A stretch of 64,000 nt of DNA. It comes from a virus. Shown here one piece after another: positions 4,143 to 29,947 of the stretch. Numbering within the stretch: the stretch's first letter is position 1; every line of letters starts with the position of its first letter. The DNA lies in the IMG/VR virus record IMGVR_UViG_3300045988_140636; one strand, written 5' to 3'. A program made the translations under genes and the position numbers. Under the pieces are notes generated by a model. The model searched no databases, had not been told where the DNA came from, and worked only from the letters and a program-made list of their open reading frames with translations.

Positions 4143-7064
4143 TTAACTTAATAAATTTATTGTACCACAAATACTGTCACCATTTTCATCTCTATAATCT
4201 ACATTAGGCTGAATAGACGTTACATCATTTTCTGAACCTGAGGGAATTTCAAGGGAAGAGCCATATATATCTTCATAAGCCTGTCTTAATGCATCCTCAC
4301 TAAAGGCCTCTCTGTACATTTCAGAATAAGCCAAATCCTCTTCTGTCATTTGAGGAGTTTCATAAGAAGTAACTGCTTCATCAATAACAGCATTAGGATT
4401 ATAACCTTTCTTGTTCTTATCAATTACAGAAGTCATTTCACTTGCTTCCTTACCATACTCATATTCAATAAAGCTATTCTTGAATCCAAGTGGCTCAATC
4501 CTTCTATAGACGGCTACATTAGACTCTTCAACTCTATCTGCAGTTAATCTGTAATAAATATAGTTACCTTTGTTTCTTCTTGCAATGAAATCAAAGAAGT
4601 CATATACAGGACCATCAGGAGTATCTATTCTCTTCTTGATGATTTTTTTATCCCCAAAATTAGCATTTTCATCTATTACAAATGTAACTTCATCCTTAAT
4701 CCCATTATCTTCACCTCTAAATAAAGTTGAAGCATCATCAGGAATTTCAGGAACAAGCTTTCTATTATCAAGATGATTGTAGACATACTGTTCAACAAAG
4801 TCACTATAGTCATCCTCGGATGTAAGGAGACTTCTTAGTGTTTCAATATACTCTGGAACTGCACTTCTTACAGCTACAGGAGCTAAATGAATAAAGGTAT
4901 TAGGACCAAATGCAAAGCCATTTCTGTAGAAGCTGTATCTGAATAAGTTAAGAGCAAGCTTTTGAGCTTCTGGGTTACTCATATATAATAGAGAAGTCCA
5001 GTCTCTCATATATCTTTCTCTTAGAGTGGGACTCAATTGACCAACATTCTTAAACACCACAGTGTCCACAGGATTTGTATCATTTGCCCTTATCACTCTA
5101 AGTCTCTTAATAAACTCAAGGTCAGCTATATCCTCATTCTCTGCAACCACTTTCTTGAAGTAAGTTGGGAAATTATTGATGAAGTCCCTTCTCTTGTCAG
5201 CAGATGTAATCATCTTTGTAGGATTACCATTCTCATCTACTGAACTCCAATCAGGTTCTGCACCAAAGAAATCTGTCTTAGACATTATATAAGCAAGCAA
5301 ATCATTGTAAATACTATTCATAGTCTTCACATTTAATCTACCTGTCTTTGTCATGTTTCTAAGAACATCAACTACCTCATCAAATGACTCAGTGAATTGA
5401 GGGAAATACTTGCTTAACATTCTCTCTGATTGCTTCAATCCAAGTGTGTAGAATGCCTGTAAGAAAGGCAATTTACTTGCAAGCAATTGCTCTCTTATGT
5501 TGTCAATGTCATCATTAAGAGAAATACTGTCACTGATTACATCTGCCCCTACAAGTGGAAACTTGTCATTCTCCTCCATATCTTTCAAGAAGTCTTGAAC
5601 CTTTTGGATTTTGAGCTTTGTATCAGCAATAGTTGGACCTGCTGCACCACCTTGAGTATCAGACCTTGTAGCTTGCACAAGCTGACCAAGGCTATCAGCA
5701 GTTCTCATTATTCTCTTAAATAGGAATCCTACAGCAACTTGTTTCTTATAGAACTCAACCTTACTGTAATCAGAAGTCTGATGGGCACTTGTGATGCCTG
5801 CCATTTCCTTTGCAATAAGGATGTTGTTGGCAAGGTCTTCAATTAGGAAGTCATTATTCTTATAGTTATCATAAGTAACTTCTTCCATCATTGCAGCCTT
5901 CTTCTTATATTCTACAAGGATTTCATCAATCACAGTGTCCTTACCTTTACCTTCTCTACTCTCCCTAAAATAAGTCTGGGTAATATCCATAACAATAGGT
6001 TGTGTCATAAGCAAACCTATCTCAATAGGGTTATAACCTAGTCTTGAAAGAAGCATAGAAGCATCAGCAGTGAATGTATTTTGGTTAATACCAGCCAACA
6101 CAGGATCTTTCACATTATCCACAGATGCAGCCAAGAAACCTGCATTATTCTTTGATATAAACTCTTTGTCTTCATTCATAATGTTATGTAAAGAAATAAG
6201 TCTCTTCCCATTCAATATAAATGAGCCATTCTCTACATCAAGGCCTAATTCAGTATGTTGCATTAAAGCATGATTAGCATTATGATTTGCATATATACCT
6301 ATCAGTTTTGCACCAGTCATATTCTGTTGATGAAGTTGTACTTGAGTTCTTGGAGAAATAGGGTCAAGTCTTTTCTTAGTTTTTTCAGTAAGCCTATCAA
6401 GTTCTTTTAAATCCATTGAAAGTAACTTAGTAATAATCGAGCCATCAGAAATATTTAAGTCTCTTTTTAAATCTGATTCATAGCTCGAACTAAGAATACT
6501 AATAATTCTTGCAGCTTTCTTTTGATAATCAAAACCACCTGGGTTAAGAATCTTAGAGGCTGTATCTGTATTCGTTAGAACTCCCCACATCATATCTATC
6601 ATCAAGTTGTTTCTTGCTTCAAGACTATTTTCTTGTGGAGTTTTATTAAAGTCATACTTTACTTTTCTAATCTTGTATGTATCAAGTCTGTACTTTTCCT
6701 TGTTTTCTTCAAACCATTTCTTAAACTCTACAGGTGCATTTGCAAAGTCCTCTAATAGATTTCCTGCCCTAAATAAGGTAGCTAATTCATCAAGTATTTC
6801 TTGCTCACCTTTAAAGTCCTGTTTTGCTCTTCTGAAGTCAAACTTATCTACCTTGAATTCAGGAAGCATAATATACATCTTATCCACATCAAAGTCAGAA
6901 CCTGACAGAGTGGTAATCTCAGCAGGAAGCATAATTGCAGAACCATTCTGTTGAGGTAAGAATCCTTTGATATACAAAGGAGCCATTGAGTACTTATCTT
7001 CAGTTGGTTGTTTTGTTATCTTACAGATGTTTATTCTGTAATTCTTTATGTTTCCATAAAGCAC
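4143..7064 (-). CDS. virion RNA polymerase-like protein, downstream exon (about 960 aa). The DFDVD motif sits at 6882..6896. The first 15-27 codons of the ORF-track model overlap the intron 3' region, so the true exon start is 6983-7019
   Basis: SGSDFDVDKMY (DxDxD metal-binding-type motif as in crAss-like/phi14:2-type RNAP) about 57 aa from ORF start; the ORF-track start is a GTG lying inside the intron S element. Confidence 0.5.
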   Translation of the reverse strand: MLYGNIKNYRINICKITKQPTEDKYSMAPLYIKGFLPQQNGSAIMLPAEITTLSGSDFDVDKMYIMLPEFKVDKFDFRRAKQDFKGEQEILDELATLFRAGNLLEDFANAPVEFKKWFEENKEKYRLDTYKIRKVKYDFNKTPQENSLEARNNLMIDMMWGVLTNTDTASKILNPGGFDYQKKAARIISILSSSYESDLKRDLNISDGSIITKLLSMDLKELDRLTEKTKKRLDPISPRTQVQLHQQNMTGAKLIGIYANHNANHALMQHTELGLDVENGSFILNGKRLISLHNIMNEDKEFISKNNAGFLAASVDNVKDPVLAGINQNTFTADASMLLSRLGYNPIEIGLLMTQPIVMDITQTYFRESREGKGKDTVIDEILVEYKKKAAMMEEVTYDNYKNNDFLIEDLANNILIAKEMAGITSAHQTSDYSKVEFYKKQVAVGFLFKRIMRTADSLGQLVQATRSDTQGGAAGPTIADTKLKIQKVQDFLKDMEENDKFPLVGADVISDSISLNDDIDNIREQLLASKLPFLQAFYTLGLKQSERMLSKYFPQFTESFDEVVDVLRNMTKTGRLNVKTMNSIYNDLLAYIMSKTDFFGAEPDWSSVDENGNPTKMITSADKRRDFINNFPTYFKKVVAENEDIADLEFIKRLRVIRANDTNPVDTVVFKNVGQLSPTLRERYMRDWTSLLYMSNPEAQKLALNLFRYSFYRNGFAFGPNTFIHLAPVAVRSAVPEYIETLRSLLTSEDDYSDFVEQYVYNHLDNRKLVPEIPDDASTLFRGEDNGIKDEVTFVIDENANFGDKKIIKKRIDTPDGPVYDFFDFIARRNKGNYIYYRLTADRVEESNVAVYRRIEPLGFKNSFIEYEYGKEASEMTSVIDKNKKGYNPNAVIDEAVTSYETPQMTEEDLAYSEMYREAFSEDALRQAYEDIYGSSLEIPSGSENDVTSIQPNVDYRDENGDSICGTINLLS

Positions 7065-7908
7065 GGACTATATCTTCATCCTATAAGGATGTTGGGCACT
7101 CGTGGGTATATTATATTCTATTTTCATAGTTTCAATACCTAGTCTCTGAACCTTTTATAACCATTTAAGTTATAACTTGGCTGCTGATTGTCCCTACTTA
7201 TTGAATTGTCACACACTTGCATATTCCCAGTAATAACCATATCTTTTCTGATGAGTTTTAATACCACTAATTATGTTAGCATCTTTCCTAATATTTCCTA
7301 ATTGTCTGGCAGCTTCTCTAATAGATTGGTAAGTATTTATAATATTACCATCATTATCTATTTGATTAATCTGTCTTTTATTAGGATTAGATTCTCTAAG
7401 TTTTAATCCTATTTTAACTGCTTTATTTCCATAACAGTTATTATAAGACTTAGTACACCATTCAAGATTTTCTACAGAATTATTAGTCTTATTTTCATCT
7501 TTGTGGTTTATACATTCCAAATTGTTAGGATTTGGAATAAAAGTATCAGCTACTATTCTATGTACTGCAATAGTTCTTTTCTTGTTAGTGTCATCGTATA
7601 ATTTCACTATAGGATAGCCACTACTATCAAGTACTGAGGATAAAGGTTTCAAAATGTTACCTTGTCTATAACTAAATACTTTACCACTTTTAGTTACTTT
7701 ATAGCTTGGATATTCTCCAAATCTACTTTTAATATTAAATAGTTCTTCTTCCATATAATGTTTTTGTGTAGATTTATATGTGCAAAGATACTATAAATAT
7801 TTGAATTATGCAAATTTTGTATCAATAATCTAACAGGATGTTCCAGCAATTCACCCAATTTATTATTCTTTAGTATTACTACTAAAGCGAGTCCCAATCT
7901 TTCGATTA
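7020..7908 (-). mobile_element. group I intron (minus strand) inside the RNAP gene, carrying an HNH homing endonuclease; the 3' splice site is approximate (candidates at 7020, 6993, 6984)
   Basis: Minus-strand P (GAATTGCTGGAAC, 7841-7853), Q (CAATCAGCAGCCAA, 7177-7190), R (GGTTCAGAGACT, 7141-7152) and S (AAGATATAGTCC, 7065-7076) elements in canonical order. P2 hairpin with GUAA loop at 7868-7887. P9 hairpin with GAAA tetraloop follows S. Exon ends in U (GTT) and can pair with GACUC (7889-7893) as P1 with a U-G wobble. Confidence 0.7.
7209..7754 (-). CDS. HNH (HNH_3/AP2-type) homing endonuclease with C-terminal NUMOD/IENR-like DNA-binding motif, intron-encoded
   Basis: YKVTKSGKVFS...GYPIVKL...AVHRIVADTF...ECINHKDENKTNNSVENLEW motif pattern; lies between the intron 5' region and the Q/R/S core. 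Confidence 0.75.
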   Translation of the reverse strand: MEEELFNIKSRFGEYPSYKVTKSGKVFSYRQGNILKPLSSVLDSSGYPIVKLYDDTNKKRTIAVHRIVADTFIPNPNNLECINHKDENKTNNSVENLEWCTKSYNNCYGNKAVKIGLKLRESNPNKRQINQIDNDGNIINTYQSIREAARQLGNIRKDANIISGIKTHQKRYGYYWEYASV

Positions 7909-10900
7909 AACTCTATAACCAATCAACTTCCTAAGATCTTTAGGAAGTTTGGTAATATCAAGTTCATGAGTTCCTTCCTTCATAAGGGGTTCATAGAACT
8001 CTCTTGAATAAGCTGGCATGTAACATTCAAGATATTTAATTCTCTTGTTCTCACCTTCCCCTTCAAATACCACATGAAGTTCATCAGTTAAGCCATAATC
8101 AGATACCTGAATCAATGCTCCACCTCTAATCTTCTGTTTGGTGATTTTGCTCTTGATGATACTATTAAGAAGAGTCTGTACTCTTTGAGATTGTACAGGA
8201 TCAAATAATGGAATATTGAACTGACCATTCTCATTAAGGGTACAGGCTCTGACCATATCAATTCCATATCTCTGATTACCTCTAATCTCTTCAAGTAGTG
8301 CCTCCTCTATCTTCTTAGGGTCTTTGAATATATCATTCACATTCTTGAATGCTTGCAAGATATTCTCAGTATTGATTGCATTATACAGGTCCAGCCATTC
8401 CTGCTTGGTCATTTTCTTACCATCAACCTCAATGATAGCATCTGATGCAATATCAGCAGTAATCAACTTTCTAATCTGAGTACCTACAAGCTGCACAGCA
8501 TCAATAGCATGTTCAGGAGTTGCAGTCTGAATACCATAATCTTCATAGCTTATTTTATGTACTACATTAGGATTCTCAATACCATTAGGCATAGTAGTAT
8601 TCTTCAATACCTCCTTTACTTGCCTGAAGTCACTAACCTCGTTAAGGTCAATAACACCTTGCTTCCCGACTTTAGTAGTAGATTCAAATTGAACTACATC
8701 AATATTGTTCTCTTCCATGAATTCATTAATAGCTTTAAGCTTGCTTGATTTACTAAGTGGACCAGCTATTAACTCATGCATGGCAAGTAATAAGAATTCA
8801 GAGTTCTTATGCTGTACAGGAGTCTTAATACCAGTATGACCTTCTACACCACTCATGTTGCTAATTTGGGTATATACATAAGGTTTCTTAGTCTGCCAGA
8901 TGATATTAAAGTCAGCAATGTTCCAAGTACCATTTTTGAAATTATTATATGCCTGCTCCATCTCATCTGTCCATTGGCCAGACATACCAAGTATTGCTCT
9001 ATAGGAGCTTAAACTTCTATAAGCCTGTGCATCTGCAACATTAACTGCCTTAAACTTGTTAATAATATTATCTCTATCCATCTTGGGCATTTCACCTTTC
9101 TTAACTCTCTCATCAAGAACTGTTTCAATATCACTCAGTACTGAAGATACAACCTCATCATCCTTCAAGTAGATAGTTCTTTCCCAATCTCTACCAATTC
9201 TTTCTCCCTTATAAGTAGCTTTGGTATTCATTCTAAGAGCTGGGGCATGAACCTCCTTATATCTCTTCTGAAAGTCCTCTACATTCTTATAGAAAGCTAA
9301 GTCGGTAGTAGTTAACTCAATAATTTGAGAAGTAGCTAATTTACTATTCCAGTAATACTCTCTTAATGCAGCTTTTGTATTATTCTTTACTATAAGGTTT
9401 TTGTTAATACTATCTGCTTCTTGTTTAGTAATATCTCCTCTTATAGACTTCTGATTTATTAAGTCTTTAATTTGTTGGAACAAATCTGTAGCAACTCTAT
9501 CATCTACTGGATTATTGTTGTTATAATCTTTCAATAACAACTCCATATCAGTAGTCCATAAAGTAGTACCAAGGATTTCTTTAGCTTTGATAAGAGACTT
9601 TGCAGTTCTTGAGTTCTGCTGTGATTGACCTGCAAAAGGTAAGTACTTATACTTTCCATTTGGTAACTCATCAAATAAACCAATTCTTGCCCAGTCTCTA
9701 TATGCCTCTTCAAAGCCATTATCCATAACTTCTCTAAGAGTATCTCTAATGAATTCCTTTAACTCAGCACCACTGCCTTCCCTGCTCAATCTACTCAATC
9801 TGTCAAGGAATGTTTCTCCATTATTATATCTAATGGAATTAAGTGCAGGTAAGAACTTAAACTCAGCTCCCCCTATACTCTTAATACTTCCATCCTTCTT
9901 CCTGGAAATATCATAGTTTGCTATAGGGGAGATGTTTGGATTATTATTCTGAAATTCCTCATCTCTTGCTCTGACAAGCATTATTCTGTCATATTCTTGA
10001 TTGACTAAATCAGTTAGTTTATCAAGGATAATATCATCATAAGTCAGCTTGTTCCCATTCTCATCATATTCAACTCCACTTACATATTTTCTGAATCTAA
10101 TGAATTCAGCAGAAGGAGAATCTGAAAGAATAGGGACATGATACCAGGCCCACTTCACACTTGTTCTACTATCTTCTGGGTCTCCCCAATATTCAGTAAG
10201 AAGTGCTAAGGTATAATCTAAGTCATCCCAGTTAGTGTAGTCCACTTTATCAGAGTTCAATACTACTTTATGATTTAGGCCTCTTCTCATTTCCTCAGAG
10301 TTAACCAGTTGCTCTAACCAGTCACTTCTCCATCTCCCATCTTTAAAGAACCACTCATATTGCTTAAACTCAGTATTAATAAATTCTTCAAATCTCTTCC
10401 TATCTCCTCTTACATTCTTAAGCTGTTTAATTAACTTTCCAAGATAATTTGGGGTGACATGAGAGTAATAAGACTTATCATTCTCTCTAACACTACTTTC
10501 AATAGCATCTTCAGTTACATTAGCCATCATATTTGCAATCGCACTATAAGCTGAACCAAATGTATTGATTAAGTCTCCTCTCTTCTCTATTCCATCTTCT
10601 CCTGTTTCTGACTTTATTTCCCCCTTCTTGATTCCTTTGAATATAATATTCAATTGAGGTAGTAGGACCATAATAGGGTCAGTAAACTTAGCTGTATCAG
10701 AAGTTCTAATATCAGTTAGTGCATTTCTTAATATAGAGGGATTGGCATCAATACCAATCATATTCAACAGCTTTAGTATAGTTTTCCAGATCCTATCATC
10801 CTCAAGAAGTTCTAATCTTGCTTCAGTATCCAAATTAGAGAATTTATTGTTTAGAGTTTCGACCCACTTAAGACCTTTTTCAGCATTTTCAATATTTATG

Positions 10901-12258
10901 TCCCCATTCTTCTCATATACACTATCATTATCAAGTTGCATACCATTCTCATAGTTATCTCTCCAAGCATCAAGAAGGTAATATACACCTTCAGGCTTGT
11001 TAATAGCAATGGTTTGCATCTTGAATGTACCATCAAGCATCGTCTTTTTCTTCTGGATCCAATAGGGTACGAAATCCTTTCTGAAATCTTGATAGAATTG
11101 AGAAAATAGCGTATCATCCTCCTCAAGCAATTCTCTTACTTGAGTCACCCAAGGTTTATTCCTTTCGAGCCCCTGTATAAGAGGGATCATATCTTCAGAA
11201 GTAATCATATCTCTCAACTTGTCGATAAGAGTTGCATGAACATAATCAGCATCTAAATACCTTAGATTACCCAAATCATCTTCCTTATACATTCCTTCAT
11301 AGTCAAGCCTGGGTATTTCCCTAATAACTTTTCTAACTGCTTGAGATAAAGATTCATGGGAACTAACTTGTCTAAAGTTAGTCATCCAGCCATCTTTAAA
11401 AGTCTCTTCCTTATTATAATCATCAGCTTGCTCATCAAGCTCACTGTATCCTTCAGGAGTATCATCATTTAAGTTAGCATCTTTAGGAGCACTATAGTTC
11501 AAGTCAATTCTAACTCCTTCTGTCATTACGAGTAATGTGCTAGCTTCTTCTGCCAAAGGTTTAAAGTTATCAACAACTTTTCTATAAGCTTGTTCCTTAT
11601 ATACAGCTTTTCTTCTTGCAGCATCCAATTTTTGTTCATCAGAGAATCTTTCAGATTCATCTATAACACCCTCATCAATTAATGTCTGCTCTCTTGCATT
11701 TATTGCCCCAAGTTCAATTTGTACTCTATTCTCTTCTGTATCGTTGATATAGGATTGAAATATATCCAATACTCTGTCAAATAATCCAGCAGGGGTGTAT
11801 TTCTTTATGGCATCAAATCTATTAAGGGAGCTTAACTCCATCTGTAATTGTAATCTTTCTTCATCAGAAGCTGTATCCATTCTCTTATTAAGAGAATCAT
11901 TCATTTCCTGTAGTGCTTTATCTACCTCATTACTAAAGAATCTAGCAATAAGGCTTACTCTATCTCTTCTAGTTCTTGGGTCAAAGTCTAAATCAACCTT
12001 AGCTTGCTCTTCAATAGAAGAGATCTTAGGAGTGTCAAATGAAGTAGATAATGCTTCATCAAGCATTTCTATTGTATCTGCACTTCTGAGTTTAAATCTG
12101 AAATCATTAAGTTCCTTTGCAGAAGGATACTCTTCAATAGATTTATTATTCTCTTTTTGCCATAAAGCTACAAGGCCCTTTACAGATTCTTCTGTCTCAC
12201 CTTGTAACTTCTCAGTTAAGTGCCTAATCTCTTTAGTTGCTACTAAACAATTATTCAT
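7909..12258 (-). CDS. virion RNA polymerase-like protein, upstream exon (1449 aa); the annotated TAA stop is the first three nt of the intron
   Basis: Giant ORF ending ...LIGYRV then TAA; GAGTT exon end pairs with the intron IGS; contiguous with the DFDVD-containing ORF across the intron. Confidence 0.5.
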
Positions 12259-12526: not shown

Positions 12527-12566
12527 TTTGAAAACTTTCTAACATGGTCAAGAAGAGGTGTAAAGA

Positions 12567-18159: not shown

Positions 18160-18477
18160 TTAATGAACCCAGTAGGTTGGAAGAGGACCATTGTCATCAA
18201 GATATTCTCTATAGCTCTTTGGTAAGTCCTTTATTTTATAAGACTGATTAGTTCTGATATTTACTAGAACATCTTCTCCCATAGAGGCTATAACATCGCC
18301 CTTAACCATGATCTTCTCTCCATTAAATTCAAAGTCTCCTATACATAATTTATGTCTGGACACGTCTACATCCAACTTTACCCTGTGAACAAAATATGCT
18401 CCAGCTTTAACCATTATATCATATAGTACTTTAGCTATATCTTCCGCTATCTCTTCTGGAGCTTCACAGTTGATTTC
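18160..18477 (-). CDS. DNA polymerase I (family A), exon 2, encoding EINCEAPEE... to the C-terminus
   Basis: Aligns to the Pol I post-motif-C region (Taq HDELVLEAPKERAEAVARLAKEVMEG versus YDEINCEAPEEIAEDIAKVLYDIMVKAG); preceded by omega-G at 18478. Confidence 0.8.
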   Translation of the reverse strand, partial: EINCEAPEEIAEDIAKVLYDIMVKAGAYFVHRVKLDVDVSRHKLCIGDFEFNGEKIMVKGDVIASMGEDVLVNIRTNQSYKIKDLPKSYREYLDDNGPLPTYWVH

Positions 18478-19341
18478 CACATATGTTACGAATATGTCGA
18501 TTCCACATATTCTCTTTAGATTTCTCTAAAGGTCGGACTATATCTTATAAAAATCTCCACATATAGGCTAGTTGCCCATTGGTTAGATTTCTATCAGTGC
18601 TTTTCAGCTGCTCTTGCAGCTTACTCCATTTCTGGATAGTCTCTGAACTCCATAATTTATAAGAGTAACAATTAATAGGATATTTAGCTAATATAGAATG
18701 AATAATATAGGCTCCCTCATATTTATTTATTCCTAAATAATATAATGGTCTGCTATGATTATTATCTACTCTTACTTTAGCTTTTACTCCTATACTCTCA
18801 AAGAAAGGAATAAATACATTTTCTTGAATATTCAGAGAAAATTTCTGAGTATTAAGGTTGTAATATAAGTCCCTCTTATGAAGGCTCCCATCATCATAGA
18901 ACCACAATGCTAAACCTAACTCATCAAGATTACTCACTACTTCTTCTATAGGGAGTTCCTTGATTAATTTAAGTGAAAACCAAGCTCCTCCATAATAAGT
19001 ATATATGGGAGTTTGGTTATAACCATTGCTGTCTACATGATTTATTTTGCCTTTACCAATTAATTGTTTTTTATACTCTAAGTATTCCTTATGCTTACAA
19101 TTGGATGTATATATAGTACTACCACTATTAGTAGTAGATATGCAACCATCCCCTAATATAGCAGTAAGAAAAACCTGAGTTTGCTCTCTTGTAAAATCAT
19201 AAAGCTGCTTATTGCCTATTTCTCTTAAGTTACTTAAAATCATATTTAATACTTTTACTAGTTTATTATTACAATAATTCAGTGATTAAATCTTTAAGGG
19301 TTTCAAGCAATTAACACTGTTTTACTACAACAAAATTACTT
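18478..19341 (-). mobile_element. group I intron (864 nt) in the DNA polymerase gene with LAGLIDADG homing endonuclease
   Basis: Minus-strand P (AATTGCTTGAAAC, 19296-19308), R (GTTCAGAGACT, 18639-18649) and S (AAGATATAGTCC, 18535-18546). P9 CUUUAGAGAAAUCUAAAG and P9.1 hairpins. Exon 1 ends with U (GAT); omega-G precedes exon 2; the reading frame is continuous. Confidence 0.85.
18545..19243 (-). CDS. LAGLIDADG homing endonuclease (double-motif), intron-encoded
   Basis: LTAILGDGCIS and LALWFYDDGS motifs. Confidence 0.85.
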   Translation of the reverse strand: MILSNLREIGNKQLYDFTREQTQVFLTAILGDGCISTTNSGSTIYTSNCKHKEYLEYKKQLIGKGKINHVDSNGYNQTPIYTYYGGAWFSLKLIKELPIEEVVSNLDELGLALWFYDDGSLHKRDLYYNLNTQKFSLNIQENVFIPFFESIGVKAKVRVDNNHSRPLYYLGINKYEGAYIIHSILAKYPINCYSYKLWSSETIQKWSKLQEQLKSTDRNLTNGQLAYMWRFL

Positions 19342-21306
19342 ATCGTAGGGTGTTACAGTAATTAACACCTTGAATAATAAGTCATTACGTCTTAAGTATT
19401 CAAAAAAGTTTATCATACTCACCTTATAACACAATGCTCCAGTATGCTGTATAGGATAATTAACGGATTGCCTATCAGAATCAGACTTCCTCTTAAAGAA
19501 CTCTTTTACCATCTGCACCGTATCACATTTAGGAGCATCTATTTTCATTTCCCTATAGTAATCCCAAAACCTAGGTTCCTTAAACTTTACTTGTAGCTTC
19601 CTAAGATAGTTCCAATCATAGATATAGGCTCTATATCCAACTTTAGGATTAAGGTCTATATAGCCTTTACTGAACCAGTCCTTCTTTCTGAACTCAATAT
19701 ATCTTTTAAGACCATTAAAACCTTTCATATAATTGTCATATATCTCTTTAGCTCTTTTAGCTGTAAGCCCGAAGTTTCTCATAATGGTGTTGTCATTACC
19801 AGCGTAATTAAAAGCAAACTCATAACCTTTAGCCTCACTTCTCAACTTATGATACTGCTTCTTAACTTCTTTGGCAGGCATATCTTTAGGAATTTCAGGA
19901 AATACTATCTTCGCAGTTAGTGTATGTAAGTCCTTCTCACCATAGGTAAGCTCTCTAATCATCTCCTTATCATCAGCTACATCAGCCATGATAAATGATT
20001 CTTGCCCTGAGTAATCGGCACTTATCCATTTATTGCCACTTTCAGCTATGAAACAAGCCCTAGTCCTAGCATCAGCAGGCATATTAAGCATATTTACGTA
20101 CTCAACCTTAGCTGACTTGTCCTTACCTCCTGAGCTTATTCTTGCTGTATCAGTACCCAATGAGTTAAAGTTGGTATATAGCCTTCCAGTATCCCTATCT
20201 ATCTGTTTAAGTACATTTGCCCCATAGGTACTGCACAGCTTCTTCATTTCCTTATACCTTATATATAAGGGAATAAGACCACACTTATCCTTCTGAGGAG
20301 CCAATACCTTAGCTCCTATACTATCCTTATCCTCTCCTTCATCTTTGTCAAGAGAAGTTGTATCAACCCCATATTTCTTAAATAAAGGAATAACTTGTTT
20401 GGAGCTATTCCAATTAAGAACCACTTGGGGTTCAGTATTAAAACCTGAGAATAAACTACCTTGCCTATCTATTTTAATATACTTTGAATTGGGCTCATGC
20501 TCTATAAGCCATCTGTCCATTTCACCTTTAATGCTATCAAGAATAGATTGATCATGTTTCATTTTTTTCTGCCATTTATCTGTATCCATCTTTATGCCAC
20601 AATAGCACATATAAGCAATAGGAAGTATAGCCCTGTTCTCATACTCCATAGCAGTAAGAAGTCCTTGCTTCTCTAATTGTTTCAATTGTAATTCTTGTAT
20701 TTTCTCAAGATATTTTACATCATTGGCAGCATAGACTATGACATCTTCTGTAAGACCTTTATAGATGATTTGCCCTCTTATGGATTTATCGAGCTCTACT
20801 CCAAGATACATTTCACCTAGCTTTTTCAGATTCATATATAGAACATATTTAGCTTTTGAACTTTTTTTACTAGGGTCTGCCGGTACATAGTCATATCTAG
20901 GACATTGTATCTTATCCCATACTTCTGGACTTAATACAGTAGGGTAACCTAACCACATTAGTTTCTCTGCTAGAAACAAGTCATAGACATTACGAGGAAC
21001 TATATGGTATTTATAAAGCCACTGTAGATCAAATTTGGCATTATGAAATAAGAAAAGCCTATCAGATTCAAGATAGTTTTCATATAAAGTAATATCTGTA
21101 GTAAGACAATCTATTACTACTTGAAAATCAAAGCACCCTAATTGCAATGACAAGAGCTTATCCTTATGACAACTTAATCCACTAGTCTCGGTATCAACTC
21201 CTACAATTCTAAGAGGTTTAAGTAGGGATAGACTCTCGTCTACCCCTATTATTTTGTACTTCTCAGGTTCAAATAATTCTATATTTTTCGTAACTACATA
21301 TATCAT
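19342..21306 (-). CDS. DNA polymerase I (family A) with 3'-5' exonuclease domain, exon 1
   Basis: Exo I VGVDTETSGL, Exo III YAANDVKYL, motif A DYSGQESF, motif B RSEAKGYEFAFNYAG, NYPIQHTG; terminates at ...TPYD immediately before the intron. Confidence 0.85.
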
Positions 21307-22063: not shown

Positions 22064-22084
22064 GCCTCATAATTTTTTTAGTTA

Positions 22085-22624: not shown

Positions 22625-22647
22625 ATTTATTCTATTTCTTTTTATTA

Positions 22648-22863
22648 TTAAAACAAATAATTGTAATCTACTATATGAGGGGGAGTCAAAGCCCTCTTCT
22701 TTTTAAACATAATTTTACTTCCTACCATAAAAGAGATACTATCTGCGTTATATCCTATAGCTTTAAGGTACTCTTCTACATTATCTATTTTATTAGCCAC
22801 CTCCTCTGGTATTTTTATACAATCCACGGTGGAACTTTGATAATCCAATACTACAGTTTCCAT
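22648..22863 (-). CDS. hypothetical small protein
   Basis: ORF between dUTPase and RNR. Confidence 0.3.
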   Translation of the reverse strand: METVVLDYQSSTVDCIKIPEEVANKIDNVEEYLKAIGYNADSISFMVGSKIMFKKKRALTPPHIVDYNYLF

Positions 22864-22880
22864 AATTAAATAGTTATTAG

Positions 22881-25800
22881 TTAATCACATCTTGAATAAC
22901 CACAATTCATGCAGTGTGTACAACCTCCATCTCTAACTAGGTTTCCACCGCACTCTGGGCACACTTCTCCTTTAATCTCTGAAGATTTAATATACTTGGC
23001 TAATATTCTACACATGGCAGAACTGAAGGAAGTTATATTATCATTTACTTTTTTGGCTGTTTTAGTAATAAATTCAATGCTAACTCCATGTCTTAATAGC
23101 ATTGATGAATATAAAGTAGCGGCTTTCTCCTCTATATTAGTATTAGCCAACTGTAAATCAGATAATTGAATAAACTTACTATCAAAGCTGTAGTGCATTT
23201 TACCTTTCTTGATAATCTTTCCTTTATGGGGAGGAATATCAATAGGTCTTAGAGGTCTGAATGCAAAAATTTCATAAGGTTTCCCTTCTAACAATCCTAC
23301 AAGAACGATAAATTGTTCCCCTTTCACTTTGACTTGATGATAGTCAGCTTCAAGCTCTTTAGGTCTCTTAGGAGCTTGTCTATTACTTATAGTACTAGGC
23401 TTTTCTATCTTATTCAAGACTCCTTCCCTACAACCATCTCTATATATAGTCTGTCCTTTATTTCCTGTTCTCCATGCTTCTATATAAATATCAGCAATCT
23501 CCTCTTCAGTAATCTCTTTTGGAAGATTTATTGTAGAACTAATACTATGAGTGATATATTTCTGTACAATACCTTGCAACTTGATTCTTTGCTTCCAATC
23601 TATCTCTGGTGCTGTAGATCCATAATAAGGACTCTTCTTAAAAGCCTCTTTAAGATATTCCATATCCTGTAACTTCTCCAAATATTCAGGATCATTGAAG
23701 TTCCCTTTGAATGTAGAATAGCATAACCATTTGGCTAAATTAGGATGAACCACTGTGAATAAAGTGTATTTTTCTCCTTTTACATCAGTATAATCTACTT
23801 TATCATTAGGAGACATACATTTTCTCTTTCTTCTATAGAATGGTAAAAAGACAGGCTCTATTCCAGAGGAACATTGAGCCATAATACTCACAGTGCCTGT
23901 GGGTGCAACAGTCGACCAACTTATATTTCTTCGGCCTAAGCATTTCATTTTAATAGCCTCTGTGTGGAAATTATCACTAAGGAATTCATACCATTTGTTC
24001 TTGCCACGATGGGGTATAACAGTATATTCCTTATGTGAATCCCAAGCTGGAAATGCTCCTCTCTCAATAGTCATATCTATTTGAGAGTCCAATTGACCCT
24101 TAAATATAATCCTCATCAGATCTTCAATTTTTTGAATACCTTCATCAGAATCATATTTCAGCCCTAACATAGCTATGGCATCTGCCAATCCAGTAAAACC
24201 AAGACCAGCTCTTCTACCTCTTCTTGTAGTCTCTCTTATTCTACTCCATAGATTAAATTCTACAAAGTCAGATTCACCGTTAGCTATATTTATAATTCTG
24301 TCTATGGCTTCCAATTCAAGATCTACAAGATCATCTGCTAATCTCATAGCTTCGTAGGAATGCTTGTAGAGTAAGTCTTTATCAATATAAGATTCTTCCG
24401 TAAATGGATCTTTTATATAGCTTGTCAGATTAATATGTATCAATCGGCAACTATCAAAGGGACCCATTGGTATTTCTCCACAGTTATGAGCAACCATATT
24501 ATTAGCAATTAAACAATGTGTTCCAGGTACTTGTATATCATATACATCTACTTGTTCACCTTCTTCAATGCTAACTATACAATTATCCCACTGATTTCTA
24601 CACTTAGTAGCTAAGTAATCAGGTAATGGCTCTGTATTTTTCCAAGCTGGGGTTTTTTCACTTGGGACAAACCTCCCATCTTCTCCTCTGACCTGGTGAT
24701 TTTGTGGATTCTGTTCTAATGCTGTAAGTCTAGCATGTTTAGAGTGATCAATAGATTGAAGGTTATTAATTACATTATTAAATGGATTTGCATCTAAGTG
24801 ATGAATATCCTTATCAATCTGCTGACCATATACTCCCTCATAAACAAGTCTATGCTCCATTACATAGTCCCTATTTCCCTCGGTAGTAAGTTTCACTCCG
24901 ACATATCTCCTTCCTCTTCTGCTCCTTAGGATATGAGCAATTCTATCTCCTATCTTAAGATTTTGAGCTTCTATAAATCCCACTCCTTGAACGAACATTT
25001 TATGGTTAGGCGTAACCATTATAGAAGATCCATTTCTTAGGACAATCTTTAATGTTTTAGCATTATCTCTTGTCTTAAAAGCTGCTGTAGAGGGAACTAT
25101 ACAAATATGCCCTTCCTCATTCATGCTATATACATAAGTAGGTTCAGTTATATCAGCAATTCTCTTTCTGCCTTCTACAGTTTCAATGAGAGTATCAGGA
25201 TGAAAGCAAGGATTTGTCCCGATCATCTTAAATTCTTCATAAACACCATCAGGAGCATAATCATGCATAGCATTTTCAAACATTATTCCAGGTTCAGCTG
25301 TATTATATGCACAATGCATTAGAGTATTCCATAACTTTCTTGCTTTAATCTTTTTTAAACAAACTCTTTTTTCAGCAGGAAGGGCTTCCCCAAAGCAGAG
25401 TAATTTATCATATTCCATCTCTTCTAATTGAGAAGGATCATAATTGGCATGTACAGGCCATCTAAGCAAATAATCTTCATCATTGATTACTGCTCTCATG
25501 AACTCATCTGTGACTTTCACACTTATATTGGCTCCAGTTACTTTGGTAAGATCTTGCTTTTTAGTAATGAACTCTTCAATGTCAGGGTGATTTATACTAA
25601 TACTTAACATTAAAGCTCCACGTCTACCATTCTGTGCTACCTCATTGGTGATATCAGAACATACATCCATAAAGCTTGCTGCACCAGTAGATGATTTAGC
25701 TGCATTATTCACTGCAGCTCCTCTTGGTCTTAGATTAGATAAATCATAACCTACTCCTCCTCTCCTTTTCATGAGCTGGACTTGCTGGCTTCTGGTATTC

Positions 25801-26165
25801 ATTATACTAGAGTAACTATCTACTGGAGAACCTATTACAAAACAGTTAGATAAAGAGACCAATTTTCCTGTACCTAATCCGGACATAACAGAACCTCCAG
25901 GGATTATATATTTAAAGTTCTTGAACAGTTCATATATATCCTCCTCTTTTAGCTCTTTCCTTTCATTCCCATAAGGGGATAATACTAACCTGCCTTTTTG
26001 ACTCATAGGAGTATTATTCGCATATTCTCTCTCTATTCTACCAAATTCCTTAGCGAGTCTCCTATGCATATCATCAGGAGTAGTTTCTCCTTCCATAGCG
26101 TACTTGTTTTTCCATGTGGAAGCCGCTAATTCATCTCCATTAAAATAATTCAATAAATCATTCAT
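22881..26165 (-). CDS. ribonucleotide reductase catalytic subunit (monomeric class II-like; C-terminal CxxC...CxxC tail) interrupted by an intein
   Basis: LSNCFV first-Cys region and NP/CGEI active-site loop split by the intein. C-terminal CPECGG...CTHCMNCG. No beta-subunit ORF seen nearby. Confidence 0.7.
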   Translation of the reverse strand: MNDLLNYFNGDELAASTWKNKYAMEGETTPDDMHRRLAKEFGRIEREYANNTPMSQKGRLVLSPYGNERKELKEEDIYELFKNFKYIIPGGSVMSGLGTGKLVSLSNCFVIGSPVDSYSSIMNTRSQQVQLMKRRGGVGYDLSNLRPRGAAVNNAAKSSTGAASFMDVCSDITNEVAQNGRRGALMLSISINHPDIEEFITKKQDLTKVTGANISVKVTDEFMRAVINDEDYLLRWPVHANYDPSQLEEMEYDKLLCFGEALPAEKRVCLKKIKARKLWNTLMHCAYNTAEPGIMFENAMHDYAPDGVYEEFKMIGTNPCFHPDTLIETVEGRKRIADITEPTYVYSMNEEGHICIVPSTAAFKTRDNAKTLKIVLRNGSSIMVTPNHKMFVQGVGFIEAQNLKIGDRIAHILRSRRGRRYVGVKLTTEGNRDYVMEHRLVYEGVYGQQIDKDIHHLDANPFNNVINNLQSIDHSKHARLTALEQNPQNHQVRGEDGRFVPSEKTPAWKNTEPLPDYLATKCRNQWDNCIVSIEEGEQVDVYDIQVPGTHCLIANNMVAHNCGEIPMGPFDSCRLIHINLTSYIKDPFTEESYIDKDLLYKHSYEAMRLADDLVDLELEAIDRIINIANGESDFVEFNLWSRIRETTRRGRRAGLGFTGLADAIAMLGLKYDSDEGIQKIEDLMRIIFKGQLDSQIDMTIERGAFPAWDSHKEYTVIPHRGKNKWYEFLSDNFHTEAIKMKCLGRRNISWSTVAPTGTVSIMAQCSSGIEPVFLPFYRRKRKCMSPNDKVDYTDVKGEKYTLFTVVHPNLAKWLCYSTFKGNFNDPEYLEKLQDMEYLKEAFKKSPYYGSTAPEIDWKQRIKLQGIVQKYITHSISSTINLPKEITEEEIADIYIEAWRTGNKGQTIYRDGCREGVLNKIEKPSTISNRQAPKRPKELEADYHQVKVKGEQFIVLVGLLEGKPYEIFAFRPLRPIDIPPHKGKIIKKGKMHYSFDSKFIQLSDLQLANTNIEEKAATLYSSMLLRHGVSIEFITKTAKKVNDNITSFSSAMCRILAKYIKSSEIKGEVCPECGGNLVRDGGCTHCMNCGYSRCD
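24483..25208 (-). mobile_element. intein (242 aa) with HNH endonuclease domain inserted at the RNR NPC|GE active site
   Basis: Starts CFHPDTLIETVEG (block A, Cys1), ends NMVAHN followed by +1 Cys (CGEI); internal HNH motif HRLV...DIHHLDANPFNNVINNL...H. Confidence 0.75.
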
Positions 26166-27198
26166 TATTTAACCAATTTGTTATTACGTTAATTTCTGAA
26201 ATATTTGCAGGATATTCCACATTATGAGTGGAATAATAATGAAGTTCTGATACTATCTTACTCCAATGCCTGCATAAATACTGTTTATTTCTTCCGTAGA
26301 CATGGTCTTCGAACTTACTGGTATCATCATAGATCCATACAAGAGGCTTCTTATTATATCTATTGATTACTATAAATCTGTAATCCAATAGTTTATAATT
26401 TCTATAGAACTCATCTTTGTCCAAGGTCTGTCTTATAAGATACCAATAAAGCTGAGCTTGAATCCAGTAATTCCAGTCTATAAAAGACTTATAGAATTCC
26501 CATTCACTCTTCCCAGATGTTTTTAAATCACAAGGAATGATATATTTCTCCTTATGATTAACTATGAGTAGGTCAGCCATACATCTTAGCGGAATTTTAT
26601 TCCATTCCCCTTTGAACTTCAATTGATAAAATCTTTCTACCTCAGGATTGAAAGGATTATTACATTCAAAGTACCACTTAGTCATTCTATGCGTCTTTAA
26701 TACTTCCACACATTCACATGCACTAATATAATCTTTGGTAGATACCAGTGTTTTACCTTTAGATAAAAATAATAGAGAGTAATAATCTCTACACTCTTCC
26801 TTTATCTTTCTTATTCTATAGGAAGCATACTTAGGATTAGAATAATATCCACAAGATTCTCCTATGTCTGATATAATATTGTCTGGTATTTGCTCTATGC
26901 CTTTGCAGGATTCATGATATGTATTAAATAACATTTTAGCTATCTGGGCTAGGGAGTCACTAATATCGGGAAGTTCAGCTACTTCATATCTTTTATCGAA
27001 TTCCTTTTGACCATCTGTAAGAAGAGTATCTACCATACTTCCAAATAACAAAGAAGGAGTCTCTATTTTATCATATAGATTGCCTAAACCATTAAATCCT
27101 TCTCTATTAAATCTGGCTATAACAGAATAAGAATAAGCTGGGTCAGATCTATACTCCTCTTCATTCACTTTCCAAGAAATATCATACAAAGATTTCAT
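26158..27198 (-). CDS. PD-(D/E)xK superfamily nuclease (RecB/YqaJ-like exonuclease)
   Basis: AYSYSVIARF N-terminal signature; MADLLIV ... IIPCDLKTSG (D...D/ExK). Confidence 0.45.
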   Translation of the reverse strand: MKSLYDISWKVNEEEYRSDPAYSYSVIARFNREGFNGLGNLYDKIETPSLLFGSMVDTLLTDGQKEFDKRYEVAELPDISDSLAQIAKMLFNTYHESCKGIEQIPDNIISDIGESCGYYSNPKYASYRIRKIKEECRDYYSLLFLSKGKTLVSTKDYISACECVEVLKTHRMTKWYFECNNPFNPEVERFYQLKFKGEWNKIPLRCMADLLIVNHKEKYIIPCDLKTSGKSEWEFYKSFIDWNYWIQAQLYWYLIRQTLDKDEFYRNYKLLDYRFIVINRYNKKPLVWIYDDTSKFEDHVYGRNKQYLCRHWSKIVSELHYYSTHNVEYPANISEINVITNWLNNE

Positions 27199-27201
27199 AC
27201 C

Positions 27202-27474
27202 TTAATACTCTAAATCACTAGGAAAATCAAGTTGCATTAAGTACACATCTACCTCAGACTTTAACACATTAAGGCTGTCTAGATCAATCTTTAAATATTC
27301 TGGCCTAGGATTTTCTTTCCTTCTGTCCATTCGTATCTTATTTATTGCAGAATCTACTAGCTCCTTCAACGAGTAAAAGTCTCTATTATCTAGGAATTTA
27401 TAGCCTAAATGAATATCCTTTTCAGGAAGTAAACCAATTAATTTCCTAATTCTATCTACAGGTGTGCTGCTCAT
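27202..27474 (-). CDS. hypothetical protein
   Basis: ORF in operon spacing. Confidence 0.3.
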   Translation of the reverse strand: MSSTPVDRIRKLIGLLPEKDIHLGYKFLDNRDFYSLKELVDSAINKIRMDRRKENPRPEYLKIDLDSLNVLKSEVDVYLMQLDFPSDLEY

Positions 27475-27964
27475 AATTTTTTATAATTTCTATTGCTTGA
27501 AGAAGTTGTTTTTTTGTATACACCTCAAAATATATAGATCTTTCACCGCTCTTTGTGTAGAGCTGGTCCAAGTAATACAAAAACATTTTCTTCTTGATAT
27601 AAAATACATCATTTTCTATCCCCTTAGCCTCAATATACACATTGAGATTGTTATATTTAAAGTAAAAGTCTGGAGTATATCTGATTCCTACTATCTTTCC
27701 AGTCTTCTGTATTAATATCCTTGAAGGACAATTGTTTATTCCTTCTTCAAGTCTCTTGGCTCTTTGCCTATCTGTCTCCATATCATAATATGGAGTCATT
27801 GGTTGAAATCCATCCCACAAGGTAAAGGTCTTAGGTTCATATTGAGGATCAAATCCATGTTGTAAAAGGATATTATAAAATCTCTTCTCTATAACACTCT
27901 TAAAGGTAATGCTACTATCCTTGCAGACAGTAGCATTCCTTATCTTTTTATTTGCAGTTTTCAT
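27452..27964 (-). CDS. T7 endonuclease I-like Holliday junction resolvase
   Basis: YTPDFYF...VYIEAKG (compare T7 gp3 YTPDFLL...FIEVKG) and N-terminal S.IEKRFYNILLQHGFDPQYE resembling T7 endo I SGLEDKVSKQLESKGIKFEYE. Confidence 0.55.
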   Translation of the reverse strand: MKTANKKIRNATVCKDSSITFKSVIEKRFYNILLQHGFDPQYEPKTFTLWDGFQPMTPYYDMETDRQRAKRLEEGINNCPSRILIQKTGKIVGIRYTPDFYFKYNNLNVYIEAKGIENDVFYIKKKMFLYYLDQLYTKSGERSIYFEVYTKKQLLQAIEIIKNYEQHTCR

Positions 27965-28539
27965 TTAAAGTCAAAACATTCTTGCGTTAGCAAATTTTGA
28001 AACTCTTCCAATAATCCAAGAGCAATTTGGGCTTCTCTGGCAGATCTGAAAGCAGCGAAGTTTTTGTAATCCTTGATACATTCTTTTTTCAGGTTATAAA
28101 CTTTCATACTAATTATATCTGCCATGTATATGTTAGGGCTATTACTAATATGATCTTCATAATTGGCATCTAGATCGATAGCTATTTCCCTTAAGAACAT
28201 AGTATATAGTGAAGCTGGACAAATATTAAGTAAGGTAAAAAGGAATTCTATAGAATTCTCTTCATTTAGACTGGATTTTTGGCATATTTTCCTAAGATAA
28301 TACTCTACATCTTTTTCAGATTTAAGGGGTCCTTCTTCTAGATCTTCTCTCTCTACTATTAAACCTTTTTTAATTAGTTTACTTATGCTATTAGGAAGTA
28401 CAATAAATTCTTGAATTACAGAAAAGTAATCTCCCCTACGTACTCTTCTTATAACGTCACCCATTTTTACTTCTTCACCTGCTTTAGTGTAATACCTTTT
28501 CTTATTCATATTTTTCTGTTTAATGTCAATATTCTTCAT
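27961..28539 (-). CDS. hypothetical protein
   Basis: ORF in operon spacing. Confidence 0.35.
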   Translation of the reverse strand: MKNIDIKQKNMNKKRYYTKAGEEVKMGDVIRRVRRGDYFSVIQEFIVLPNSISKLIKKGLIVEREDLEEGPLKSEKDVEYYLRKICQKSSLNEENSIEFLFTLLNICPASLYTMFLREIAIDLDANYEDHISNSPNIYMADIISMKVYNLKKECIKDYKNFAAFRSAREAQIALGLLEEFQNLLTQECFDFK

Positions 28540-29017
28540 ACCATTTTATGGAATACCCATAAATATCTCTTAATTTTTTATCTATTTCATCAAATAGATA
28601 ATGAGGCATCTTTGTCCCACTCCTTGCAAAATATGCAGGGTGTTCAATCTTCAAAACATGATTGAAATTCTTATTGATATACGGATCAAATGTTCCAGCT
28701 TGTTTACCGAATAATACATATACAATAGAACACAAATTTTCCGAAAGATTCTTTAATAATTTAGATATGAATGGTCTCCATAACATAACATGGGAGCCTA
28801 TTTTATTCATCTCCACAGTAAGAGCAGAGTTAATCATTAATATACCCTGCTTAGCCCAGTTCTCTAAAGTTTGGTCAAAGATAATGCTATCATGTGGAAT
28901 TTCCAAATTTATCACTGCTTCTTTTAATATTTTTAGAGAAGGCGACAAATCTTCTTCTGAAACTTCTTTTCTATTTCCAAACAGTACTCCAGTAGCTACT
29001 CCCTTTTGTGGATAAGG
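28526..29017 (-). CDS. ung: uracil-DNA glycosylase family 1, exon 2 (from PYPQKG...)
   Basis: Continues the E. coli Ung alignment after GQD (PYHGPGQAHG versus PYPQKGVATG); GILMINSALTV; C-terminal HPAYFARSG (HPSPLS-like); omega-G at 29018. Confidence 0.8.
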   Translation of the reverse strand, partial: PYPQKGVATGVLFGNRKEVSEEDLSPSLKILKEAVINLEIPHDSIIFDQTLENWAKQGILMINSALTVEMNKIGSHVMLWRPFISKLLKNLSENLCSIVYVLFGKQAGTFDPYINKNFNHVLKIEHPAYFARSGTKMPHYLFDEIDKKLRDIYGYSIKWYEEY

Positions 29018-29947
29018 CAATTTGTTACCCCAAAGGCTCTTTATCCTTTGGTTCTATATATTACTATATAGTTCGGACTATATCTTCATTGTTTCCAATG
29101 CAGGGCACTCGTGTCAGGTTTATTATTTGAGCTATTCACCTGTTAGTCTCTGAACCTTCTACATACTTTTATGCTCTTCTGTAGCTTGGCTGCTGATTGA
29201 CTCATTAAGTTGTTCCAGCAATTCACCCTGTTTATCCAGAACCCTTCTTTTACTATAAGTAATTAGTTTATATTGCATGGATGGAATAATATAATCTTTA
29301 ATTAGTTCTACAAACTTAGGAAAATCCTTAGCTTGTAGATACATACTATTATCATGTTTGCCTACAGTAAAATGTAAGTCAAATTTATTTAATAATATGT
29401 TAGCTAACAAAAGCTGTTCTTCAAGAGTAAATGAACAAGTAGATAAGGTACATGAATTTTTAGTTACATAACCATCATCCATATACCATATAGCCAAACC
29501 TAAAGCATCTATATCTTTTACAAATTCTTCAAAGATTCTTTTATGTCCATTAGAGTCATAATATTTTAATCTTATATTTGTAAAAATAGGATGTAATCTA
29601 GATTTAAATCTATATCCAACTAATTCATGTAAATATCTTTTATTATTTACATGATATTCAACTATAGGAGATACTAAGTTATATTTATTTAGTATCTCCC
29701 ATTTATACTCAAGATATTCTTTTTGTTTTTCAGAGTGCGCTATACTAAGACACATATTTTTAGCTGTTTTTCCTACTGAACAAAAACATCCATCACCTAA
29801 CAAACTTCCTATAAGAAGTTGTCTTAGATCATTTTCTACTTTAATTTCCTTGTAATTCTTCATACCATTAAGAATTTGGCACAAAGATAAGGTATTTGAC
29901 CTAATATTGCAATATTCTAGTTAAATTATTTATAGATTATTACCAAA
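29018..29947 (-). mobile_element. group I intron (930 nt) in the UDG gene with LAGLIDADG homing endonuclease
   Basis: Minus-strand Q (CAATCAGCAGCCAA, 29184-29197), R (GGTTCAGAGACT, 29145-29156) and S (AAGATATAGTCC, 29073-29084); P9 CUAUAUAGUAAUAUAUAG; ends GGUAACAAAUUG|; exon 1 ends in U (GAT). Confidence 0.85.
29159..29884 (-). CDS. LAGLIDADG homing endonuclease (double-motif), intron-encoded
   Basis: IGSLLGDGCFC and LAIWYMDDGY motifs; paralogous to 18545..19243. Confidence 0.85.
   Translation of the reverse strand: MCQILNGMKNYKEIKVENDLRQLLIGSLLGDGCFCSVGKTAKNMCLSIAHSEKQKEYLEYKWEILNKYNLVSPIVEYHVNNKRYLHELVGYRFKSRLHPIFTNIRLKYYDSNGHKRIFEEFVKDIDALGLAIWYMDDGYVTKNSCTLSTCSFTLEEQLLLANILLNKFDLHFTVGKHDNSMYLQAKDFPKFVELIKDYIIPSMQYKLITYSKRRVLDKQGELLEQLNESISSQATEEHKSM

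Follow-up and report, generated by a model that had tools for sequence, protein, structure and literature searches.

The stretch analysed here, 64,000 nucleotides (nt) of IMG/VR record IMGVR_UViG_3300045988_140636 (hereafter the window), comes from a crAss-like phage of the family Steigviridae, whose closest record, cr128_1 (NC_055885), shares about 92% nucleotide identity with it over most of positions 7909-29017. The genes for a virion-type RNA polymerase (RNAP), a family A DNA polymerase (PolA), and a uracil-DNA glycosylase (UDG) are each interrupted by an insert that we identify, on sequence evidence, as a genuine group I intron with its own putative homing endonuclease gene. These introns are referred to as I1 (RNAP), I2 (PolA), and I3 (UDG); all three, like the genes that they interrupt, lie on the minus strand. 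The initial annotation of this DNA had proposed three insertion sites and two endonuclease families, and both hold, as by Pfam the open reading frame (ORF) of I1 belongs to HNH_3 and those of I2 and I3 to LAGLIDADG_2. The Rfam model RF00028 (group I intron; gathering threshold 50 bits) matches the window at 7044-7287 (54.4 bits), 29054-29300 (80.9 bits), and 45591-45860, with I1 and I3 above the threshold. No RF00028 match was obtained for I2, even at E ≤ 1, because it contains two ORF-filled insertions.

I1 is 901 nt long (7008..7908). Its boundaries are given by the uninterrupted RNAP gene of cr128_1, an exact intronless allele that joins AGAGTT↓CCAAC (the arrow marks the junction) and thereby places the intron at 7908 to 7008, between GYRV and PTED in the protein (GYRV↓PTED); an Rfam match to the 3' half and covariation agree with this assignment. 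With I1 removed, the expected exon join is GGTTATAGAGTT↓CCAACTGAAG. Exon 1 (7909..12258; 1450 aa, ending in GYRV) is 92% identical to the cr128_1 RNAP by tblastn, and exon 2 (4143..7007) starts with PTEDKYS. The endonuclease ORF (7209..7754; 181 aa) lies wholly inside loop L5. It had been described as HNH/NUMOD, of which the HNH part stands (HNH_3, 33.2 bits; Pfam cut-off 24.8), while the NUMOD-type matches are below cut-off (I-HmuI_NUMOD-like, 19.6 bits vs 27; NUMOD1, 17.1 vs 22.8). The internal guide sequence GATTGGGACTC (7889..7899) forms P1 (GAGUU/GACUC), with a U.G pair at the 5' splice site in 10/10 copies and one compensatory pair, and the adjoining P10 (CCAA/UUGG). The catalytic core (7064..7190) comprises Q (7177-7190), P6, R (7140-7152), P7.1/P7.2, P3' (7092-7104), P8, and S (7064-7076), and it is followed by the 3' tail (7008..7020), in which the last intron base is A7008, not G. 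In a family structure of 10 members and 76 pairs, pairing reaches 96% and 24 pairs are compensatory, as compared to about 40% paired in slid controls. All 12 relatives of the endonuclease on viral contigs (72-94% identity) occur at the same RNAP site.

I2 (864 nt; 18478..19341) lies between PolA exon 1 (19342..21306) and exon 2 (18160..18477), at PYD↓E. The intronless PolA of crAss001 reads ...TPYD↓EINCE, which sets the intron at 19341 to 18478; I2 itself is present in cr128_1 (98% identity), where the annotation divides it into three separate ORFs. The LAGLIDADG ORF (18545..19243; 232 aa) matches LAGLIDADG_2 with 4e-11 (43.5 bits), above the cut-off of 25 bits for PF03161. It starts in L5 and passes through P5', Q, the P6 insert, R, P7.1/P7.2, P3', and P8 to a stop in S, so that both R (AGTTCAGAGACT, 18637-18649) and Q (CAATAAGCAGCTTT, CAATAAGCAGC, at about 19202-19215) are inside it; the P6 stem (19194-19204 / 18648-18658) encloses some 535 nt of ORF-filled insert. 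The guide sequence ATTTTGTTGTAG (19325..19336) provides P10 (GAAAU/AUUUU, one compensatory pair) and P1 (CUACGAU/GUUGUAG, U.G in 6/6 members). In a hand-built group I structure of 79 pairs, six family members are 98% paired; 21 of the pairs are compensatory, some of them in P3, P8, and P10. Helices P8, P7.1/P7.2, and P3' covary even though they are inside the LAGLIDADG coding sequence (region 18535-19215, minus strand), with compensatory changes in 6/10 P8 pairs; protein sequence and RNA structure therefore both constrain these nucleotides. Relatives of the endonuclease were found on 14 viral contigs (68-100% identity), each time in PolA at PYD↓E; the PolA intron of MT835492, with its ORF, is the same element at 75% nucleotide identity to I2.

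I3 (930 nt; 29018..29947) separates UDG exon 1 (29948..30133) from exon 2 (28526..29017) at GQD↓PYP. The uninterrupted cr128_1 UDG gene, again an exact intronless allele, joins CAGGAT↓CCTTATCC and sets the intron at 29947 to 29018. The ORF (29159..29863) starts at an ATG at 29863 (the mechanical ORF start is a TTG at 29884), matches LAGLIDADG_2 with 3e-33 (115.7 bits; above the same cut-off), and runs from the P1 loop through the guide sequence, P3-P5, and Q to a stop in P6. The structure was obtained from the Rfam alignment and from compensation in P3 within the family (CAGGG/CCCUG vs UUGGG/CCCAA), and the guide sequence AAGGGTTCTGGAT (29234..29246), with P10 CCUU/AAGG and P1 CAGGAU/GUUCUG, was read from the sequence and is conserved in the family. 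The initial annotation noted a LAGLIDADG ORF overlapping R in one intron; this is correct for I2, and the I3 ORF also overlaps the core (guide, P3-P5, Q, and P6). The common 3' end given there, GUAACAnAUG, was only loosely right, the true ends being GATAACAAAACAA↓CC in I1, CGTAACATATGTG↓GA in I2, and GGTAACAAATTG↓CC in I3. The I3 endonuclease has 21 relatives (61-93% identity), all in UDG at GQD↓PYP. The UDG region (28526-30840) is a divergence hotspot, where the UDG exons show 84.5% and the upstream gene 66.5% nucleotide identity to cr128_1, as compared to about 92% genome-wide. On another contig, IMG/VR 3300045988_111291, the I1 and I2 endonucleases are 100% identical to those of the window and the I3 endonuclease only 89%. 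The UDG-site introns L048 and L049 are in contigs of 128-175 kb.

As had been proposed, all three introns interrupt active-site-coding sequence. The PolA site falls directly after the Asp of PYD↓E, which we take to be motif C of family A polymerases, and the UDG site falls within GQD↓PYP, presumably the water-activating loop of family 1 UDG. Homing elements usually insert in invariant sequence of this kind. In RNAP, the insertion point precedes the metal-binding motif DFDVD by 37 aa, in the catalytic double-psi beta-barrel, and exon 2 aligns there with gp66 of phi14:2, where the structure (PDB 6VR4) has IGYRIPNQ...GSDFDIDKMY.

Intron-plus and exact intron-minus alleles were found for every site. 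cr128_1 is without I1 and I3 and has I2, and crAss001 is without I2; the copies found of each lineage at its own site number 13 in RNAP, 15 in PolA (14 on viral contigs and that of MT835492), and 22 in UDG. The lineages are spread over phages with exons only 40-60% identical, and the identity of the endonucleases often exceeds that of the host exons (79% vs 48-50% at locus L040; 72% vs 58-63% at L068-L075). The higher conservation of the predicted endonucleases fits horizontal homing between diverged phages. In this picture, in which splicing by the intron itself, the activity and specificity of the endonucleases, and when and in which direction the transfers took place are all inferred, the endonuclease of each intron would cut the intronless allele of its own target (RNAP, PolA, or UDG) during co-infection, recombinational repair would copy the intron into the exact cut site, and the ribozyme would then leave the mRNA, so that the essential or conserved gene still works. 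Active-site-coding sequences would be the targets because they are the most invariant DNA across diverged phages.

With the ORFs removed, I1, I2, and I3 all fold as P3-P4-P5-P6, P7.1/P7.2, P8, P9, and P9.1. A conserved P3-P9 core that includes the P3/P7 pseudoknot is borne out by covariation in the I1 and I2 families and, for I3, by the Rfam alignment and the P3 compensation. The extra P7.1/P7.2 hairpins, between P7 and P3', occur in each of the three introns, with covariation in the I1 and I2 families; we take this architecture to be that of the phage subgroup IA2, a label assigned by architecture only. The initial annotation described the Q, R, and S elements as nearly identical. This holds for S, which is AAGATATAGTCCG exactly in all three, and for R, which is GGTTCAGAGACT in I1 and I3 and differs at one position in I2, whereas the Q 14-mer CAATCAGCAGCCAA occurs only twice in the window, in I1 and I3. 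The blocks GGGTGAATTGCTGGAAC, CAATCAGCAGCCAAG, GGTTCAGAGACTA, CACGAGTGCCC, and GAAGATATAGTCCG are likewise identical in these two introns. By blastn (one setting), I1 and I3 share 68% identity over 171 nt (54 bits), and I2 matches the others only over a 34-nt block that spans S and P9. Aligned globally from Q to the 3' end, I1 and I3 are 70% identical, I1 and I2 67%, and I2 and I3 64%, as compared to 68-90% within each lineage and to a shuffled baseline of about 54%, the latter over the shorter Q-to-S segment. All peripheral helices differ among the three introns. The location of the endonuclease gene differs as well, being L5 in I1, L5 through P6 to P7' in I2, and L1 to P6 in I3, and the LAGLIDADG proteins of I2 and I3 are 31% identical over 140 aa.

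The elements flanking the endonuclease genes had also been considered alike, which we could not confirm beyond one TATCTTTG box. This box lies on the minus strand at 7783-7790 and 29882-29889, 28 and 18 nt upstream of the endonuclease ATGs of I1 and I3, respectively; it is conserved in the I1 and I3 families, absent from I2, and not enriched in the window. It resembles TAnnTTTG, presumably a form of the Bacteroides -7 promoter box. The TAnnTTTG motif is not enriched over shuffles in the window, and we make no promoter claim.

Introns of other phages are closer to I1 and I3 than these are to each other. In blastn, I3 matches an intron of Clostridium phage CPQ4 with 132 bits, that of the cr1_1 dUTPase gene with 98, that of the phiCP13O tape-measure gene with 86, and that of a Proteus phage terminase gene with 81, and I1 matches the capsid-gene intron of bajarodcaudo virus 2, an unrelated phage, with 106 bits; the corresponding global identities from Q to the 3' end are 80% for I3-CPQ4 and 75% for I1-bajarodcaudo-2. 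A neighbor-joining (NJ) tree groups I1 with the bajarodcaudo-2 intron (92% bootstrap), puts I3 together with Clostridium, Flavobacterium, and Proteus phage introns in a different clade (74%), and leaves I2 on a long separate branch. For these comparisons the cores were taken by anchor motifs, as Rfam found only 2 introns in ten outgroup loci, where ORF insertions break the model. The sequences GGGTGAATTGCTGGAA, CAATCAGCAGCCAAG, CACGAGTGCCC, and GAAGATATAGTCYG, together with a GATAACA tail, recur in all of these outside introns, those of Flavobacterium, Proteus, and Clostridium phages among them, and in the annotated crAssphage dUTPase intron, and the Q 15-mer is present in at least 120 viral contigs from many biomes. 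The initial annotation would have been contradicted if the shared blocks were only the universal group I consensus. They exceed that consensus, but what they characterise is a large and very widespread phage intron subfamily rather than this genome. The three introns look alike because they share the catalytic core (P3, P4, P6, P7, and J8/7) and the tail motif of one widespread clade, and they form one family only in the broad sense of a common architecture (P7.1/P7.2 and an RUAACA tail).

We therefore consider I1, I2, and I3 to be separately acquired mobile introns, distinct lineages of one common phage intron type and not recent copies of one another, and assign this reading a probability of roughly 85%. 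The initial annotation favored a single scaffold that had recently spread to three sites within the genome, with the endonuclease gene swapped on the way. The identical core blocks of I1 and I3, the S element common to all three, and the TATCTTTG box upstream of two endonuclease genes would agree with such a history, but the same blocks occur in unrelated phages, the NJ tree separates the introns, and 54 bits between I1 and I3 compare with 106-132 bits to outside introns. Moreover, pairwise core identities of 64-70%, differing peripheral helices, ORFs in different loops, and a LAGLIDADG pair at 31% identity do not resemble recent copies, and in other phages each lineage is already diverse at its own site, which makes recent spread with endonuclease exchange very improbable. 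An ancient version of the idea is unlikely, though less so: an ancestral intron would have moved ectopically within the crAss-like gene pool, for example by reverse splicing or illegitimate recombination, and its copies would later have gained their own endonucleases, with occasional module exchange. The place of I1 and I3 in one subfamily, high in the similarity range of a panel of its members, the presence of the crAssphage and cr1_1 dUTPase introns in that subfamily, the I1-like P9.1 of L048, and the position of L025 in the I3-containing clade would be accounted for in this way. However, the nearest relatives found for I1 and I3 include introns of Clostridium, Proteus, and Flavobacterium phages and of an unclassified 31-kb phage, so the clade is not confined to crAss-like phages; the sequences are also short and the deep nodes of the tree weakly supported.

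Several observations weigh against separate acquisition. I1 and I3 are 73% identical, near the top of the similarity range of a random subfamily panel (median 63-65%), and they may share an older ancestry within crAss-like phages. Some family members look mosaic: P9.1 and the tail of L048 (a UDG-site intron; TTACAGAATAAAGAATCTGTAAGATAACA) are nearly identical to those of I1, and L025, at the RNAP site, falls in the I3-containing clade in spite of an endonuclease and a guide sequence of the I1 type, which suggests module exchange between intron lineages. We found no clear co-conversion tract around the RNAP and UDG junctions in comparison with cr128_1, and it is the absence at the RNAP junction that counts here. 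The homing picture itself is built on predicted splicing and predicted cleavage. Finally, and anomalously, I1 is without the terminal G that the standard splicing mechanism needs.

To our knowledge, a terminal G (omega-G) is essentially universal in group I introns and is needed for exon ligation. I2 (..TGTG↓GAA) and I3 (..ATTG↓CCT) end in this base; the I1 insert, defined relative to cr128_1, ends GATAACAAAACAA↓CCAAC, with a terminal A. The same A precedes CCAAC in 13/13 viral-contig copies, the window included (L013-L025), and in 12/12 distinct metagenome copies (L208 to L284). The latter come from a metagenome scan with GATATAGTCCGTGCTT, a probe not specific to the I1 lineage, in which 17/120 loci among the matches listed (L197-L316) were RNAP-site introns, 12 of them distinct. 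Three copies of the UDG intron (L042-L044) likewise end in A at the same junction, with exons and endonuclease ORF intact. Related introns end GATAACAAAATTG↓, and the 3' end of a 23S rRNA intron that has the same J7/9, and almost the same P9, is AACAAAACAG↓. In I1, P9.0 pairs the two bases preceding the terminal A with J7/9 (CA/UG, becoming CG/CG in L025), and the G-binding pair in P7 is identical to that of I3. The I1 tail is non-coding, its third codon being K, Q, I, N, or stop, with an in-frame TAA in at least 7 copies, whereas the first exon-2 codons, PTEDKYS, vary almost only synonymously among copies of the family and are therefore translated. The predicted A↓CC junction is thus pinned by P1, P9.0, P10, the intronless allele, the in-frame stops in the tail, and the conservation of the exon-2 codons.

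Other splice sites were considered. A canonical splice through a terminal G at G7020 or G7024, a 5' splice site moved by 1-2 nt either way, and the use of a G seven nt into exon 2 as the terminal G are all ruled out by stops, frameshifts, or loss of RV↓PTED. Stop-codon recoding was rejected as well, as no suppressor was found and ARAGORN calls only a tRNA-Arg(TCT) in the window. A tRNA-like element at 50573-50644 (plus strand; Rfam 48.9 bits) is not called by ARAGORN, and its anticodon loop is read as UGU (Thr), not as that of a suppressor.

We tentatively propose, at somewhat less than even odds, that the RNAP intron lineage is a structurally conserved natural group I clade in an essential gene that ligates its exons after a 3'-terminal A despite a canonical G-binding pair in P7, with the same terminal A in the UDG sub-branch L042-L044. 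A full-text literature search, in which the omega symbol was not searchable, found no natural intron without a terminal G. It is improbable that I1 has instead ceased to complete splicing for want of a terminal G, so that RNAP would be made as two polypeptides or its exons joined in some other way. The terminal A in every copy with an unchanged G-binding pair, the UAA stop directly after exon 1, and the A-rich stretch and conserved ATG seven codons into exon 2 would suit two polypeptides. However, nearly all changes in the PTEDKYS codons, which separate the junction from that ATG, are synonymous, and in several copies an in-frame TAA lies two codons before the junction and puts these codons beyond the reach of translation unless splicing occurs. 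P1, P9.0, and P10 also covary or are conserved around exactly the A↓CC junction, and the I1 ribozyme fold is under clear selection. If I1 does splice after its terminal A, it would be a natural exception to the rule that such introns must end in G, and a cheap and direct test of how strictly the second splicing step requires a terminal guanosine.

The window holds further mobile elements. Within the stretch covered by I1-I3, a fourth element is an intein with HNH in the ribonucleotide reductase (RNR) ORF (22881-26165), where an in-frame insert of 236 aa (24498-25205, minus strand), absent from the cr128_1 RNR, matches the Pfam families Intein_splicing and HNH_3 and, below threshold, PT-HINT. 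The HNH of I1 has no meaningful similarity to that of this intein. Outside that stretch, the Rfam match at 45591-45860 corresponds to a fourth group I intron (gene region 44937-46256, minus strand), which appears, from the sequence on its two sides, to interrupt a phage transfer-messenger RNA (tmRNA)-like gene in the T-loop. The 5' part (46256 to 45828) corresponds to the tmRNA annotated in cr106_1, with a tag-like ORF (GNTYRAAA and a stop, 46149-46175); the sequence breaks after GACGAGGGTT, and the corresponding 3' end, CGAATCCCTCATGCTCCACA, is found at 44937-44956, just after ...CTTCG. ARAGORN made no tmRNA call on the reconstructed tmRNA-like gene with the fourth intron removed. On the opposite (plus) strand, an 83-aa ORF (45362-45613) with an HNH-like motif (...DRIDSSKGYIKGNVQFV...) overlaps the 3' region of this intron, and cr128_1 annotates an "endonuclease" at this position.

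These results do not reveal a new evolutionary process; they describe ordinary homing into conserved active-site sequence, as is already known from crAss-like phages. Their value lies mainly in annotation, where RNAP, PolA, and UDG would each be recorded as one gene split by a mobile intron and not as separate "hypothetical proteins", as in the cr128_1 record. For three intron lineages circulating in gut crAss-like phages, they also add ribozyme structures and well-defined splice junctions.

The arrangement has parallels in other phages. Phage T4 reportedly carries group IA2 introns in td, nrdB, and nrdD (sunY), with the endonucleases I-TevI, I-TevII, and I-TevIII. Like the window, it has several group I introns of one subgroup in genes of nucleotide and DNA metabolism, with similar cores, endonuclease genes of different families in different peripheral loops, and spread by homing into intronless alleles. 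In contrast to T4, the present phage is crAss-like and infects Bacteroidetes, its introns target a virion-type RNAP, PolA, and UDG and encode HNH/NUMOD-like and LAGLIDADG endonucleases, two of the ORFs cross core helices, and one intron has a terminal A. The Bacillus phages SPO1 and SP82 are said to have a DNA polymerase intron encoding I-HmuI. As described, it is, like I2, a group I intron that interrupts the gene of a phage family A DNA polymerase, and the I1 endonuclease combines HNH with a sub-threshold I-HmuI NUMOD-like match; in the window, however, the HNH/NUMOD-like enzyme is in the RNAP intron and the PolA intron carries a LAGLIDADG protein. Staphylococcus phage Twort, with its multi-intron genes, is reportedly the classic case in which intragenomic spread is discussed, the orf142 introns being close relatives within one gene. 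Twort and the window both have many related group I introns in one genome, whereas the three introns studied here resemble introns of unrelated phages at least as much as they resemble each other.

A further parallel is the dUTPase intron of crAssphage (Carjivirus communis), which encodes an HNH endonuclease. It comes from the same phage order and belongs to the same ribozyme subfamily, with GGGTGAATTGCTGGAA, CAATCAGCAGCCAAG, CACGAGTGCCC, and a GATAAC tail in common, while its host gene and endonuclease are others than those in the window. The introns of crAss-like phages were surveyed by Yutin et al. 2021 (PMC7886860); like those of the window, they lie in conserved genes and are recognised through an endonuclease domain. 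Protein domains, and neither ribozyme structure nor splice junctions, are the criterion for an intron in that study. It highlights the Delta and Zeta groups, describes the Alpha-Gamma group as lacking insertions, and places crAss001 in its Beta group; the window belongs to Steigviridae, the family of crAss001.

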